From positions 1 through 64,000 of the forward strand of contig JAINCQ010000037.1 in the NCBI GenBank assembly GCA_036574205.1: a DNA stretch of 64,000 nucleotides, read 5' to 3'. Shown here one piece after another: positions 27,555 through 34,862 of this stretch. This DNA comes from Elusimicrobiota bacterium. Lineage in GTDB: Bacteria; Elusimicrobiota; Elusimicrobia; Elusimicrobiales; UBA9959. The position numbers and the translations under genes were made by a program. Every line of letters starts with the position of its first letter. Positions within the stretch are counted from its first letter, which is position 1. The notes below the pieces were generated by a model that ran no database searches, was not told where the DNA came from, and saw only the letters and a program-made list of their open reading frames with translations.

Positions 27555-30500
27555 TTATCTTTCAATTGCCAGCTTTATTGTTTTTTTGCCAACCCTTGAT
27601 TTTATAACACATAAATAAACTCCACTTCCAACAAGTTGTCCGCTTGAATTTTTCCCATGCCAGTAAGCTGTTCCAGTTGCATCTGCTGCTGTCTCATAAA
27701 CTTTTTGTCCGCTTATTGTATATATTGTTAGTTTTGCATCATCTGGAAGATTTGTTATCGTTATCATCCCCTGTCCTGGTCTATTTGGATAAAATGGATT
27801 TGGAAAAACTTTTATGTTATTTAAGTCTGAAGATGGCTGAACTAAAATAAGCTGATATATGCTGAAATGATTTAATTCAGCAGTTATTTTCCTTAATCCT
27901 TCGTTTATTGTTGTTTTAACAGGTAGACATTGACCAGTCTGGGGATTATATCTTGCTAGAACAACTCTTGATTTATTTGTATGTATATCTGGTGGAGAGC
28001 TTGGATTTACTGCTTCTGATGAAAAGTAATCAAAAGTAAAGGTAATGGGAACATATGGTTGCTCATTTGCGTATATCCCAAATGTTATTGTACTTCCACC
28101 AAAAGTGTATCCACAGTTATTTGAATCTAATTTTGCTATAGCAATTGGTTGCGGGGTAGTAAAAGATTCTTTTGGAATAAATAATACAACAGGCCTGTTG
28201 TCTATTAAATTTCCGCTTATAGTTGTGTCCTCAGATGGGCTTGTAAGTCCTGATATTGAAGCAGGTGGGGCTCCTTGTGGCCCGGGAAGAGTTACAGCTG
28301 GCGTGGTTGTTTGTATCCTTGCTGTTTCAACTCCTTCAGCATTTCTTGCGGCAACATCAAAATAATATGTAGTTCTTATCCATAATCCATTTACGGTGTA
28401 ACTAGTATCTTTGTATTCACTTCCAAAAGGAATAGGGGTTGAGATAAAAGGCGATTCAAAACTTACACTCGTAGCTCTTAATTCGTATATTGTTTCAGGA
28501 GAATTTTCCTGAGGATCCCAGTTGACTGTTACACCGGTCAAAGAAACAGAAGATACATAAACCCTGGCAACTTCTTGAGCAAGAGTGTATTTTGAGCCAA
28601 GAGATGCTGCTTCCTCTGTCATCCTTCCCTCTTTATTTATAGCATAAACTCTTGCGTAATATCTACGATTTGGTTTTAAATCTCTGGCATACTCTGAAAC
28701 TATTGGCAGTGTTGTTGAATCAGGAGTAACCTCATAACTGGTATAATTTGAAAATGTTGGTGTTTCAGATATATCAAGCCTATATCTTGTATTTATGCCT
28801 TTTTCTATATCTGCATCATTTCCATTTGAATCCCAGCTTACTTTAAAACTTCCTGTTGTTATGTATGTAAAAACATTTGGTTGAGCTGGGGATGGAACTG
28901 CGGCAAGCGTATAGACTGGCTCTGATATAGAAAAAGGTCCATAAACAAGTTCTCCATATGTCTGGGCATCCTGTTTGTATGACCTTACTTTTACCTGATA
29001 TGCGGTGTTGGTGGAAAGTCCAATCTGAGTATAATAAGGATAAGATGTGGAACTTAAAAAGACTGAAACATCTATTGTAGATTTAAAAATAGGGTCATTT
29101 GGATCTATTCCTATACGGTATTCATATATTTCATATCCGCTAGCGCCACCGGCTTTGTTCCATGACCATTTGATTGATGTAGTTGTCATTGGTGTTCCAC
29201 TGAGTCCAACTATATTTCCAACTGTTATTGTTGATACGGGAGTATTAAACGTTGACGACACCCCTGTACAGTTTTGATTTGGATTTTGAGTGTCATAAAC
29301 AGTTTCTACTCCATTTCCATTTCTTGCCTTAACTCTGAAATAATATCGGTTATTTGGTTCTAAGTTTCTTATAGTGAATTTTGTGTCTTTATAATTATTT
29401 ACAAAAGACAATGCTACTGAATACTCTGAAAAATTAGGATATGTTGATATATCCACCCTATATGGTGTAAAATCTGGATTGTTCCCGTTTGAATCCCATT
29501 CTATTTCAACAGTGTCAAAACTGGCGTAATTTACCCTTGTACATGAAGGCGGATTGGCTTTAGTATATACCGTACTTACTGCTACTGCAAATGTTGATGG
29601 ATCTGAAAATCCGCCTATGTTATAACAACCAACTTTTATGCTTGATGGGGTATTTGGTAAAAGTCCCTGCTGGTAATATGTTGCAGGGGCGCTTAAAGGA
29701 GATGGAAATGGAACAGTTGTTATAAAAACATTTGAAGCAGAAAATATTGCAAAACCATTAGAATTGCCTTCAGTTTGTAAATTCCAGTTCCATCTTATAC
29801 TGGTTGTGCTCGCTGATTCCTCTGCAACAAGGTTTGTTATGGTGCAGATTGGTCTTGGTGTTGAAGCCTGAACCATATATCCATCAGAACAAATTCCAGC
29901 ATTACAAACATAGAGATAATACCAACCATATGGAAGTTCTTGAGGAGTTGTTGGTGTTTTAACTATTATAGTTGAAAGAGTTACGTTCCAGTTTAATGCA
30001 TTAAAAGTTGAGATATAAATCTGAGAAGAGAGATCTATCATAAATTCATTATTTATTCCTCTTAAAATAACCCTTGGCTTTCCAAAATCTGATTGATGAC
30101 CACCTGAACCTGAATTTGATGCATCTGAAACTGAATGTAGATTTGAATATGAACTATAAATAGTAATATAATCTCCTCTATCAAATCTTAAGGTTGCGCT
30201 TGAGATATGAGGTTTTCTTGTTGTTAATGTGTCATAACCATATATATCTGGTTCATCAAAAAGATAATATTTTCCTTTTACATTGTCGGTATAGTCTGTT
30301 CCAGTCCATCCGCCAGTAACCATAACATAATTGGATGGCAGAAGAACGCTTGAATGTCTTATTAATTTTTCGGTATCACCGAAAAGCGCTTCATTTCTTG
30401 AGTAATAAAAATCGGTTATAAAGTTTTTAGCCGTATATTCAATAAGGCTTCCAGATGTGATTTTTTCTCCTCCAGTAATTAATATCCTTTTATTTGGTAA

Positions 30501-33500
30501 AAGTATACTTGAATGGTTTGATACTTCTGCTGCAGATATATCATCTTCTCCATCACCAAGTACTTGCCATGTAGATCCATTAAAAACCTCAACCTTATCT
30601 ATTGTCCATTCGCCTCTATTTCCGCCAAAGATAAGGACCCGTCCATCATCCATTAAATGAGCGGTATGGGAATGTCTTTTATAATTTATACTTCCTGGTG
30701 AAGAAAATGTATTTGTGGCTGGATCATATATTTCATAACTTGATAAAACATCTGTTGCATTTATTCCACCAACTATTATAACTCTTCCATCTTTCATCAA
30801 AGTGGCGGTATGTTTTGTTCTTGGATTTGCCATGGAGCCAACTGGAATAAAAATATTTGCTGTAGTTATAAAAAGCTCAGCTGAGCTCAAGTATGTTCCA
30901 GAAGAAACTCCGCCGGTTATAAGAACATTCCCATTTGGAAGGAGGGTTTGAGTGTGTCCAGCTCTTTTATAATTCATCCTGGCTGTTGGGACAAAGGTTT
31001 TAACTGAGGGATAATATATTTCTGCTGAATCAAGTGCTTGAGACTGATTGACATCTCCCTGAACTCCGCCTGTTATAAGAACAGTTCCATTTGGAAGAAG
31101 TGTGTCTCTATGATATGCTCTTGCTTCGGTCATTGTTGAGACAATTGTCCATAAGTCAAGATATTTGTTATATTCTTCACAGATATCAAGGCTTTGTTTC
31201 CCGTCAGTTCCTCCACATACAATCACAGTCCCGTCGTTTAGAACTGTAGTTGTGTGATTAGCTCTTTTAACTTTAAGTCTTGAGAAATCCTTCCATTTAT
31301 CAGATAATTGTTTAATAAGTAGGAAAGCTATGTTAGATGAATAAAATGTCGGGTCAGTTCTAAGACAGTCATTAGCTGGATCTGATTCGCAGTTTCTTCC
31401 ACCTCCTATAATTGGTGTCCCGGATTCTGATATGTTTCCAGTATGATCAAATATTGGGTATGGCTTAAGATAATCTAGAGTAAGTATTTCATCTGGATCA
31501 AAATAAAATTGATTAGTTTTTGGATTAAAGTATGTAATATCAGAGAAAAGCATATCCCTTACAACAGCTCTTGATTCACCTGTATTTATTGTAACACCTT
31601 CACTAGGAGTATTGTAATAAATACCATCTGAAATAAAAGAAAGTTTTACTGTTAAAGAATTTATATTATTTCCGATAAGGCAGTTTTGTATTTCTGTGTT
31701 GTCTAAGGTATAATCTGTAGTATTGGATATCACTCCTGTAAGATTTGAAAATGTTGCACCTGGAAATAAAATATTTTGTCCTGAAACCGGTGCAATGGCA
31801 TCTGAACTCATATCTCCTGCCGATAGTGTTAAATTGCATAAATCACTTGAAAAAGAAAGAGATTTAATAAACATTCTTCCTGTTATGTTATAGCCATTAA
31901 ACATTTTTAATTCTTCAGGAAGTTGGAGCGTTGTGTTCCCAAGAGTTATACTACATCCCGCACAGTCAGAAAACTCTAAAATTTCTCCGCTTGGAATGCT
32001 CGGGGTTAAAGAGCTAAAATCAGCAGTTGAAATTTGAGGGGAATTTAAATTGGTTAATTCTAAAGGATAAAAATAAACTGTAGCGTTTACTTGTAATGGA
32101 TCGGGGGAACTTTTAAGAACAAGATCAGCTTTTAATCTTCTTATTAAATTTCCATTTTCATCATAATATCCAACTGAGGCACCATCTAATTCTGCAGTAG
32201 TCTTGCCTAAGAATATATCCATATTTCCTATTTTTATTGATGGTTTAGGTGGATTAGTAGGTGTGGGTGGTTCATAAAATATATCTCCGTTTATTATTCT
32301 TCCAGTAACTGGTCTTGAAAGTTCTAAATCTTCCTCAAAGCTTACTGTTCCAGATATTGGACCTGTTAGTATCCTTACATCAGACATATCTCCACTCATT
32401 TCCATAGATGAATAATCAAATGTTATAGGCGAGTATGAAGTCAATGAACGTGGCTGAAAGTATGTTACCGGTATATTTCCTCTTCCGCCAAATAATACGA
32501 GTATTCCATCAGGTTTTAACATGGAAAATTGATTTGAAATTCTATATGGTAGAAGTTTATATTGATTGGCTTCTACTGGAACCCTTGCCCCATTTTTATC
32601 AAATATTTCCATAGCATCAACAAATCCCCATGTCCCATGATTTTGTCCTTCTTGTATTTCTTGAGAATCATTATCTTTGCTTTCTATATCATAACCATTA
32701 TATTCATTATAACCACCTATTATGGCAACATTGCTGTTATTTAAAACAACAGCTGAATGATAGATTCTTGAAAAAAATAGAGGTTCTGGAGAAGGAGTAA
32801 AGCTATTCGTTATAGGGTCATATATCTCTTGAGTCGGAGTAAAAGTTGCTGGATTTCCAAGCTGGGTTATTCCACCTGACATCAATACCTTTCCATTAGA
32901 AAGAAGTGAAGCCGTGTGTCCAAACCTTGAAGATGTCATATTTGGTCCAGATTTAAATTGAGTGGTTGATGTTATAAATATTTCACAAGAATTTGTTACA
33001 GTTCCAGCATTAGATTGTCCTCCACATATCAAGACATTTCCTGACTCAGGACCTACAGTTAAAAGCGTTGCTGTGTGCCCTGCTCTTTGCAATAACATAG
33101 TATTGACTATTGGAGAGCATGTATATGGTGGTGATGAAAGACATATTTCAGCTGAGTTTGTTGGTGTTCCGGTTGATATTAGATTTTTTGGGAAGTTATT
33201 GGTATACGGTGAAGGTGGATTGGTTGGATAATGAAAAGAAATTGATGTATAACCTCCTGCTACAAGAATTCTGCCATCTGGAAGCAATGTCATAGTATGA
33301 TTTGTTCTTGAAGTATTTAGAGTTTTTGTCAGGAATGGTGTTCCACCTGCTGATGTTATTATAGGTGTTGAAATTTTTATTAAACATTGATTTGTAACAG
33401 TATTTATACCTGTAACCCCACCACATGTCATTGTATTTGCATTTGGAAGAAGAACTGAAGCAGTGTTAAATTGAGAAAAAAGATTAACTGAACATAATAA

Positions 33501-33536
33501 GATAAACAGAAATAAAATATCCTTCATATTTTTCAT
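27555..33536 (-). CDS. 1993-aa secreted protein: kelch repeats, FN3 repeats and a T9SS-type-A-like C-terminal domain
   Basis: Signal peptide; many R..HT.TLL..G.VL..GG repeats; L.PN..YYFRV.A.N FN3 units; VFPNPF...IYTISGQKV...SGVY tail. Confidence 0.85.
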   Translation of the reverse strand: MKNMKDILFLFILLCSVNLFSQFNTASVLLPNANTMTCGGVTGINTVTNQCLIKISTPIITSAGGTPFLTKTLNTSRTNHTMTLLPDGRILVAGGYTSISFHYPTNPPSPYTNNFPKNLISTGTPTNSAEICLSSPPYTCSPIVNTMLLQRAGHTATLLTVGPESGNVLICGGQSNAGTVTNSCEIFITSTTQFKSGPNMTSSRFGHTASLLSNGKVLMSGGITQLGNPATFTPTQEIYDPITNSFTPSPEPLFFSRIYHSAVVLNNSNVAIIGGYNEYNGYDIESKDNDSQEIQEGQNHGTWGFVDAMEIFDKNGARVPVEANQYKLLPYRISNQFSMLKPDGILVLFGGRGNIPVTYFQPRSLTSYSPITFDYSSMEMSGDMSDVRILTGPISGTVSFEEDLELSRPVTGRIINGDIFYEPPTPTNPPKPSIKIGNMDIFLGKTTAELDGASVGYYDENGNLIRRLKADLVLKSSPDPLQVNATVYFYPLELTNLNSPQISTADFSSLTPSIPSGEILEFSDCAGCSITLGNTTLQLPEELKMFNGYNITGRMFIKSLSFSSDLCNLTLSAGDMSSDAIAPVSGQNILFPGATFSNLTGVISNTTDYTLDNTEIQNCLIGNNINSLTVKLSFISDGIYYNTPSEGVTINTGESRAVVRDMLFSDITYFNPKTNQFYFDPDEILTLDYLKPYPIFDHTGNISESGTPIIGGGRNCESDPANDCLRTDPTFYSSNIAFLLIKQLSDKWKDFSRLKVKRANHTTTVLNDGTVIVCGGTDGKQSLDICEEYNKYLDLWTIVSTMTEARAYHRDTLLPNGTVLITGGVQGDVNQSQALDSAEIYYPSVKTFVPTARMNYKRAGHTQTLLPNGNVLITGGVSSGTYLSSAELFITTANIFIPVGSMANPRTKHTATLMKDGRVIIVGGINATDVLSSYEIYDPATNTFSSPGSINYKRHSHTAHLMDDGRVLIFGGNRGEWTIDKVEVFNGSTWQVLGDGEDDISAAEVSNHSSILLPNKRILITGGEKITSGSLIEYTAKNFITDFYYSRNEALFGDTEKLIRHSSVLLPSNYVMVTGGWTGTDYTDNVKGKYYLFDEPDIYGYDTLTTRKPHISSATLRFDRGDYITIYSSYSNLHSVSDASNSGSGGHQSDFGKPRVILRGINNEFMIDLSSQIYISTFNALNWNVTLSTIIVKTPTTPQELPYGWYYLYVCNAGICSDGYMVQASTPRPICTITNLVAEESASTTSIRWNWNLQTEGNSNGFAIFSASNVFITTVPFPSPLSAPATYYQQGLLPNTPSSIKVGCYNIGGFSDPSTFAVAVSTVYTKANPPSCTRVNYASFDTVEIEWDSNGNNPDFTPYRVDISTYPNFSEYSVALSFVNNYKDTKFTIRNLEPNNRYYFRVKARNGNGVETVYDTQNPNQNCTGVSSTFNTPVSTITVGNIVGLSGTPMTTTSIKWSWNKAGGASGYEIYEYRIGIDPNDPIFKSTIDVSVFLSSTSYPYYTQIGLSTNTAYQVKVRSYKQDAQTYGELVYGPFSISEPVYTLAAVPSPAQPNVFTYITTGSFKVSWDSNGNDADIEKGINTRYRLDISETPTFSNYTSYEVTPDSTTLPIVSEYARDLKPNRRYYARVYAINKEGRMTEEAASLGSKYTLAQEVARVYVSSVSLTGVTVNWDPQENSPETIYELRATSVSFESPFISTPIPFGSEYKDTSYTVNGLWIRTTYYFDVAARNAEGVETARIQTTTPAVTLPGPQGAPPASISGLTSPSEDTTISGNLIDNRPVVLFIPKESFTTPQPIAIAKLDSNNCGYTFGGSTITFGIYANEQPYVPITFTFDYFSSEAVNPSSPPDIHTNKSRVVLARYNPQTGQCLPVKTTINEGLRKITAELNHFSIYQLILVQPSSDLNNIKVFPNPFYPNRPGQGMITITNLPDDAKLTIYTISGQKVYETAADATGTAYWHGKNSSGQLVGSGVYLCVIKSRVGKKTIKLAIER

Positions 33537-34095: not shown

Positions 34096-34171
34096 ATTTA
34101 CCTCGCAAGCTTATATATAGAAACTCCCCTTTGCATAAATATTACCTTCCGTGACGATTTAATTGCTATAT

Positions 34172-34256
34172 CCTCTCTCCTTTTTTGGAGAGGGTTAGGG
34201 GGAGGAAATTTATTTTTCACCCTCATCCTTCACCTTCCCCCATCAAGGGGGAAGGA
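34172..34256. repeat. Inverted pair of boxC-like palindromic elements
   Basis: CTCTCC-TTTTTT-GGAGAG-GGTTAGGGGGAGG, then CCCTCATCCTTCA-CCTTCCCCC-ATCAA-GGGGGAAGG in the opposite orientation. Confidence 0.6.
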
Positions 34257-34284
34257 ATTTTAATATCTCAAAAGAACTCTCTCA

Positions 34285-34699
34285 GAGATAAATTTTGCTC
34301 ACCGCTCATTTTTTCTCAAACCCTTGCTCCTCGCAAAACTGTAAGCGCAAGTTTTGCTGCGGACTTTCAAGTCACGCATAACCTTGTCGGCTTGCGCGAC
34401 CCCGCCTCGTTCGCCTGCATTGCCCAAAGCGAACTGCGGCCTTGCGAACAGCACGCGAAACCGTTTGAGGTTTCGCTCTAAAGGCAGTCCTCACCCGTGC
34501 AAAGCCAAACCATTGGGTTTGCTCAGAACCAGCAAGCGGGCGATGGGAATCGGTTGCAAATAAAATTCGCTCACCGCTCATTTTTTCGCAACCCGCCCCT
34601 CGTCCGACTGTATAGCCAAAGTCGGACTGCGGGCTTTCGATTCCCACGCAAAGCCTATCGGCTTTGCTCAGAACCAGCAAGCGGGCGATGGGAATCGAA
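34285..34699 (-). repeat. GC-rich modular hairpin array downstream of tRNA-Gly, putative structured RNA
   Basis: Three CCTCG-stem-CTGCGG modules, four GC-stem-GC hairpins, two GCTCACCGCTCATTTT modules; stem sequences differ but stay paired. Confidence 0.75.
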
Positions 34700-34814
34700 C
34701 CCTATGCCGCTATGGTTGCTCAAATAGAGCTTCCCAGCGGGCGATGGGAATCGAACCCTGTGCCGCTATGGTCGCTCAAATAGAGCTTCCCAGCGGGCGA
34801 TGGGAATCGAACCC
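34680..34814 (-). repeat. 56-bp tandem repeat containing the 23-nt tRNA-Gly 3' end
   Basis: AGCGGGCGATGGGAATCGAACCC begins at 34680, 34736 and 34792; the two 33-bp spacers differ at 2 positions. Confidence 0.95.
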
Positions 34815-34862
34815 ACGTCTAAAGCTTGGGAAGCTCTCGTTCTACCATTGAACTACGCCCGC
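34792..34862 (-). tRNA. tRNA-Gly(CCC), CCA not encoded
   Basis: GCGGGCG acceptor stem, D arm, AGAGC-TTCCCAA-GCTTT anticodon arm, GGTTCGATTCC T arm, U discriminator. Confidence 0.97.

Follow-up and report, generated by a model that had tools for sequence, protein, structure and literature searches.

The window, a 64,000-nt stretch taken from contig C31 of an Elusimicrobiota bacterium (source genome G000), contains a single Rfam match, a tRNA-Gly(CCC) gene. Directly downstream of this gene lies a repeat array in a patch of 50 to 56% GC, with surroundings of ∼30% GC. Read in the sense of the tRNA, the order is tRNA-Gly(CCC), two repeats that we call Z, and then two units of the family: X, at 34535-34679, and X', at 34285-34534. 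The guide of X' is interrupted by Y, a relative 124 nt long. The features are as follows (modules A to C are those of a preliminary description of this DNA).

34792 to 34862, minus strand: tRNA-Gly(CCC), the host gene and target (ARAGORN; Rfam RF00005).
34680 to 34791, minus strand: Z, two 56-nt repeats outside the family, both of which terminate in 23 nt copied from the tRNA 3' end.
34647 to 34679, minus strand: unit X, spacer and variable hairpin hp1 (module B, 34648-34667).
34636 to 34646, minus strand: unit X, guide, 11/11 antisense to T-arm positions 54-64 of tRNA-Gly(CCC), supported by covariation across loci.
34595 to 34635, minus strand: unit X, GAAAG junction and stem P2 (module A), the stem having an internal loop, G(C/G)A/GA, and an upper hairpin that varies.
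34552 to 34594, minus strand: unit X, stem P3 (module C), whose conserved bulged A precedes the copy's tRNA position 57 by nine bases.
34535 to 34552, minus strand: unit X, tail copy, 18 nt repeating the 3'-end positions 56-73 of the tRNA in direct orientation.
34495 to 34534, minus strand: unit X', spacer and imperfect hp1.
34371 to 34494, minus strand: sub-element Y, a self-paired relative inserted in the X' guide (covariance model match at 34362-34452, 32 bits).
34285 to 34370, minus strand: rest of X', comprising guide remnant, P2, P3, and then a tail so decayed that its match to tRNA-Gly is lost.
34170 to 34262, unstranded: palindromes of a separate repeat family, of the type that flanks a DUF559 gene on contig C7 and adjoins many arrays of G000.

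A unit of the family thus laid out spans ∼145 nt and consists of the tRNA tail, a hairpin, an 11-nt guide antisense to the T-arm, a conserved two-stem core, and 18 nt that repeat the 3' end of the tRNA. Sub-element Y has its own P1, hp1, GCAAG junction, P2, and P3, and Y-type elements are also nested or reversed at other loci. All pieces listed in the preliminary description were recovered in place: module A three times (34329-34362, 34405-34439, and 34598-34632), module C twice (motif starts at 34297 and 34569), the 18-nt tRNA 3'-end copy, and the inverted T-arm piece at 34636-34646, which is complementary at 11/11 bases to the T-arm at 34689-34699, 34745-34755, and 34801-34811. The hairpins of module B are likewise present, that at 34499-34522 proving imperfect. 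The three modules are not independent repeats; they are the stems P2 (A), hp1 (B), and P3 (C) of one unit. Two features lay beyond that description: the inverted T-arm piece varies with the tRNA, and the plan is common to the RtT repeats of Escherichia coli.

Two observations concern the neighbors of these units. The first 11 nt of each Z repeat are antisense to the tRNA-Gly anticodon arm, anticodon included; as a general rule, such an anti-anticodon piece failed, being found at 1 of 420 tRNAs examined against a permuted mean of 0.5. The palindrome family of 34170-34262 adjoins the far end of many arrays, and the sole full-length DUF559 gene lies among such palindromes, right after the tRNA-Leu(GAG) array (G000 C7:94464-94781; L179).

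The segment 34535-34702 folded better than any of 200 shuffles on the plus strand (z = −3.83) and on the minus strand, both as RNA (z = −5.15) and as DNA (z = −5.43; 0/200 shuffles as good in each). Across 157 distinct parsed units, the outer P3 stem contained 213 G-T and 4 A-C oppositions; this excess places the fold on the tRNA-sense strand, here the minus strand, and not on the plus strand on which the structure had been drawn initially. In an alignment of 41 units, 91.1% of cells pair (33 to 43% in slid controls), with 273 double-sided changes where shuffles have 84 and covariation scored at 0.50 (shuffles, 0.16), which bears out the suggestion in the preliminary description that structure is under selection; two of the five measures were not clearly above shuffles (47 and 445 of 500). 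Helix 1, the closing stem between guide and tail copy, was paired in 89% of cells (41 rows), a value inflated because 40 of the 41 rows had been selected for an exact 8-nt tail copy, the remaining row being the window unit, which is itself part of the model. The parser that delivered the 157 units demanded the bulged A of P3, and this base was invariant in the unguided 41-row alignment. One G-T pair is kept in 138/157 units, a GA/GA mismatch at positions 57-58 recurs in 9/157, and a terminator-like hairpin lies between tRNA and guide in 26/157; the upper hairpins are replaced wholesale between units.

The guide is antisense to tRNA positions 54-64, and the tail copy repeats the tRNA 3' end from position 56. 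Guides followed their local tRNA at 411/451 bases in the 41 rows, including two spurious rows that we kept (permuted, 349.5 ± 5.6; 0/20000), at 1179/1254 bases across 114 loci (permuted, 967.6 ± 9.7), and at 933/1045 bases in a set collected by pattern without any tRNA requirement (permuted, 745.5 ± 9.9). At bases where the gene tail and its copy disagree, the guide agrees with the gene in 101 cases, with the copy in 14, and with neither in 8. Both tmRNAs with G55 have a C opposite it in the guide (one genus, perhaps a single event), and Y shows the same G-C with its own 5' piece. Because position 55 is absent from the tail copy, the C opposite the tmRNA G55 relates the guide to the T-loop of the gene. 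An anti-acceptor match (positions 65-72) of at least 7/8 was found in 34/157 units, compared with 3.8 when permuted. Identity to the gene is 88% for the guide and 90% for the tail copy, and guide mismatches have no strand bias (35 G-T and 37 A-C in 157 units); this parity with the tail copy and the unbiased mismatches count against strong selection on the guide.

The family stands behind 22/44 tRNA/tmRNA genes of the source genome, a count that leaves out Arg-GCG, Ala-CGC, and Phe (loose-pattern matches among 25 flagged). There, 110 raw matches to the P2 pattern included 38 with a stem of at least 6 pairs, 35 of which lie within 900 nt downstream of a tRNA, while two continue arrays across contig ends and one is chance-like. 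A covariance model built from the 41 units gave two matches in the window (48.6 and 32 bits) and 39 in the genome. Homologs also stand behind other tRNAs in related genomes, where the preliminary description had proposed to look, and close relatives bear the family at partly different tRNAs and at tmRNA. The 157 full units were parsed behind 42 tRNA/tmRNA types, mostly in Elusimicrobiota and Patescibacteria. A scan of species-representative genomes yielded at least 114 loci, the 80 with titles coming mostly from Patescibacteria and Elusimicrobiota, and a metagenome scan with nothing but the core recovered 125 matches at 122 loci. A tRNA or tmRNA was detected no more than 160 nt away from 95 of them; among the other 30, 29 show family features by eye. 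Sets of viral contigs gave 0, 0, and 4 matches, the 4 being chance-like. At one locus (L040, tRNA-Gly GCC of genome G002), we noted a short palindrome inside the tail copy and another inside P2.

No Rfam family matched the element at gathering score (window and 20 loci) or by E-value (six loci; 551 nt, with one chance match of 10.7 bits), so the likeness to Bacillaceae repeat RNA motifs proposed at the outset is unsupported and the array does not fall into an already described Rfam family. We found no description of the family in the open-access literature.

Several observations hint at movement of the units. In genome G001, the cores behind tRNA-Leu(CAG) and tRNA-Glu(UUC) are 100% identical, and core identity averaged 0.77 at orthologous loci in relatives (9 pairs) versus 0.74 in 249 unrelated cross-genome pairs (29 units). 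Among close relatives, the same tRNA occurs with or without the element. The tRNA-Leu(CAA) array on contig C1 ends in a tRNA-Leu(GAG) tail (17/18 bases) and therefore indicates ectopic conversion. Tandem amplification, truncation, and nesting of units all occur. Y interrupts guides and also, in reverse, tail copies, and so has the same orientation relative to the T-arm in both. Contigs of three DNA sequencing runs provided no usable circle or empty-site evidence. Separately, one unit (L371, G001 C32) has been cut off from its tRNA-Ser body by an apparent integrated-island end, with guide and tail copy kept.

The array resembles the RtT repeats (Rfam RF00391, rttR; E. coli tyrT/tyrV and serX), which likewise follow a tRNA in tandem and close, unit by unit, with a tRNA 3'-end copy; they have an antisense piece that matches the local T-arm (distinct for Tyr and Ser), a multi-hairpin core with C(GNA)G loops, and a closing stem between antisense piece and tail copy that is already part of the Rfam consensus. 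The tyrV repeats have a hairpin core, a tail copy that begins at A58, and an antisense T-arm piece in which GA/GA is mismatched at 57-58, and the serX repeats have their own cognate guide behind a terminator. The two families differ in core sequence and branching, in the start of the copy (A58 in RtT, C56 in the new family), and in range, since the new family stands behind its 42 tRNA/tmRNA types in other phyla. RF00391 matched none of five carrier genomes at E ≤ 1 (the E. coli control matched) and none at 45 bits, nor did it match 34250-34800 of the window at E ≤ 10; reciprocally, the covariance model of the new family scored at most 7.9 bits on the E. coli tyrT region. A search of a phage collection with the serX repeat returned nothing, and the RtT core occurred in 28 records of a plasmid collection, with 20/20 among the matches listed being enterobacterial. 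The window feature works like the RtT repeats and is not a member of RF00391. As a second, much wider family has the same self-matching guide, we conclude that this guide is the common principle.

To our knowledge, the RtT repeats have been without a mechanism since 1991. Passages of PMC4986893 and of bioRxiv 10.1101/2024.07.17.603846 describe an RNA that is freed from tRNA operons and whose mode of action is unknown; portions of the latter also report mobilome coverage raised at tyrT and ascribe such RNA-gene signals to RNA/DNA hybrids, not circles. In the trailer of E. coli metY (L386), we observed a 9-nt antisense T-arm match that lies ∼70 nt beyond the tRNA and lacks both core and tail copy; it is possibly a relic or a chance match.

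We tentatively favor, with a confidence just short of even, the reading that the family is a non-autonomous mobile element that parasitizes the 3' ends of tRNA and tmRNA genes, acting as a folded single strand of the tRNA sense, more probably DNA than RNA, and entering T-loops by guide pairing. What we observe is a unit behind a tRNA, a 3' end repeated from position 56, an antisense guide, and a core copied among tRNA loci; with homologs in two phyla, this supports the non-autonomous element built from tRNA ends that the preliminary description had suggested. In such an element, the guide would pair across the T-loop insertion point before and after strand exchange, and a postulated trans-acting enzyme would bind the P2/P3 core and cut near positions 55-57, while the duplicated tail would leave the tRNA intact. 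Slippage between the direct repeats would lengthen and shorten the arrays, gene conversion would exchange segments among them, and the guide could stay matched in one of two ways, through a preference for T-arms that already fit it or through renewed copying from the target. If this reading is right, the family would represent a natural long-guide, base-pair-targeted insertion system. Rather more doubtful is a further-reaching version, a self-retargeting, base-pair-guided mini-transposon with a single-stranded core of ∼100 nt and an undescribed enzyme, in which the guide would be recopied from each new tRNA or tmRNA, almost any T-loop could serve, and the RtT repeats of enterobacteria would form a remote branch of this system and not a stress RNA.

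The predicted terminal loops (n = 377) comprised 79 RNYA loops, 39 GNA triloops, 34 GACG, 15 GNNNA, 6 GNRA, 2 cYNMGg, and 202 others; among 30 loops in the terminator-like hairpins, 5 were GNRA or cYNMGg. GNA triloops are of the DNA type, and RNYA loops, the commonest named class, occur in RNA too. The loop classes and the terminators before the guide lean toward DNA over RNA as the working form. Computational separation of RNA and single-stranded DNA motifs is described as hard in parts of PMC5737381.

The search for a partner enzyme clustered 3073 reading frames beside 237 loci and detected no recurrent mobility protein family except a small GIY-YIG family at three independent loci; the other clusters were housekeeping neighbors, translations of the element, and a putative small endonuclease-like family at three loci. 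No internal ORF was seen in units among 114 plus 122 loci. The source genome has a single GIY-YIG match, in a 434-aa frame, and three RAYT-like Y1 genes (L175-L177; contigs C7 and C36), each with a different flanking palindrome that is not the element. The DUF559 and RAYT genes of this genome were considered as the element's enzyme and set aside, as they belong to other repeats. Y1 genes were not clearly enriched in carriers (8/17 vs 4/20 in noncarriers; p = 0.16). In family f2, small GIY-YIG genes co-occurred with the element (12/17 vs 4/20; p = 0.003), which we do not count as linkage because other palindromes border the genes inspected, related genomes do not count as independent, and a loose pattern served to define carriers. 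The absence of a linked enzyme, of an ORF, and of circle or empty-site polymorphism and a guide no better conserved than the tail copy all count against the mobile reading. So do guide mismatches free of strand bias, the occurrence of RNYA loops in RNA as well, the target duplication, at odds with IS200/IS605 insertion, and the account of the RtT analogs as RNAs in PMC4986893. As side observations, one Y1 gene of the source genome has an internal stop codon, one Y1 palindrome type recurs near window positions 34140-34160, and two loci (L030, behind tRNA-Asp of G001, and L110) have an 85- to 94-aa GIY-YIG gene with its own palindromes directly after the tail copy; this gene is possibly a second tRNA-end element or the missing enzyme.

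We compared the family with known mobile systems. As set out in sections of PMC5934647 and PMC6006769, the left guide of IS608 is AAAG, 5' of the end hairpin, and its base-pair target choice can be extended by engineering. The family resembles IS608 and REP/RAYT elements in its single-strand hairpin with an irregular interior, where AAAG at the 5' foot of P2 is a candidate guide tetranucleotide, and in its proposed target choice by base pairing; it differs in having a guide that is 10-11 nt or longer and locus specific, a duplicated target 3' end, one such hairpin per unit, and no linked transposase. The pairing register of IS608 also differs from that of the AAAG before P2. IS200/IS605 elements have hairpins at both ends and insert with no target duplication; here P2 and P3 are dissimilar, and the duplication of at least 18 nt does not fit IS200/IS605. 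REP/RAYT systems combine a GT[AG]G guide and hairpin with copies flanking a RAYT gene; the Y1 genes of the source genome are flanked by other palindromes, and no Y1 gene recurs beside the 237 loci. At the att-site duplications of tRNA-targeting islands and CIMEs, the duplicated tRNA 3' end keeps the gene intact, as in the family. Each CIME family has one specific tRNA target, whereas a single core is found here at 42 tRNA/tmRNA types, with an internal antisense guide and neither integrase nor cargo. The bridge RNA of IS110 and the internal guide sequence of group I introns provide programmable pairing across a junction, again as in the family, which lacks a recombinase or intron core and has its guide in cis beside the target.

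A structured trailer RNA of the RtT kind is a possible, if unlikely, alternative. It would be co-transcribed with the tRNA and freed in processing, its guide closing a three-way junction with the tail copy or competing with the T-arm to tune tRNA folding, and it would spread by gene conversion. Consistent with this are the structure on the sense strand, a core that is near-invariant in two phyla, and a plan like that of RtT, in whose Rfam consensus the guide is paired to the tail copy; moreover, RtT-family RNAs are reported in passages of PMC4986893 as freed from tRNA operons and seen on Actinobacillus Northern blots. Terminator-like hairpins before the guide, in 26/157 units and in E. coli serX, argue the other way, as do the lack of mutual compensation between guide and tail copy, the patchy presence of the element, guides disrupted by Y, the unit cut off from its tRNA-Ser body, and the rarity of GNRA and UUCG loops. 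Were the trailer RNA real, it would be a widespread, uncatalogued one in Patescibacteria and Elusimicrobiota.

That the units are functionless debris seems improbable to us. Template switching in replication would then make the inverted tail copies and repair stems in blocks, and gene conversion would spread a hitchhiking core among tRNA loci. A single template-switch event can create and repair hairpin stems, according to parts of PMC8794818; the wholesale changes of the upper hairpins, the equal drift of guide and tail copy, and the ectopic conversion at the C1 tRNA-Leu(CAA) array agree with such an origin. It sits poorly with the retention across phyla of the same core, a guide end fixed at 54, a copy start at 56, the G-T pair (138/157), and the bulged A and with the recurrence of the GA/GA mismatch at 57-58 both in the 9/157 units and in E. 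coli RtT.

Very improbable is a minimal self-splicing or reverse-splicing ribozyme in which the guide would act as an internal guide sequence, first on the T-loop and then on the tail copy, with the bulged A of P3 as branch point: the guide does span the junction and could swap partners, and the bulged A, 8-9 nt short of the right end, has a spacing near that in group II domain 6, but the core is only ∼100 nt, shows by eye neither group II domain 5 geometry nor a GUGYG start, has no Rfam intron match on units and no catalytic core domains of group I or II introns, and it is the copy that decays, with the gene tail left intact, so that no splicing is needed. Readings as a hammerhead, an HDV-like/theta motif, a k-turn, or group II domain 5 were also tried by eye, with no fit.

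Elsewhere in the window, positions 27555-33536 on the minus strand hold an ORF of 1993 aa whose product, by eye, resembles a secreted protein with kelch-like and fibronectin-like repeats.
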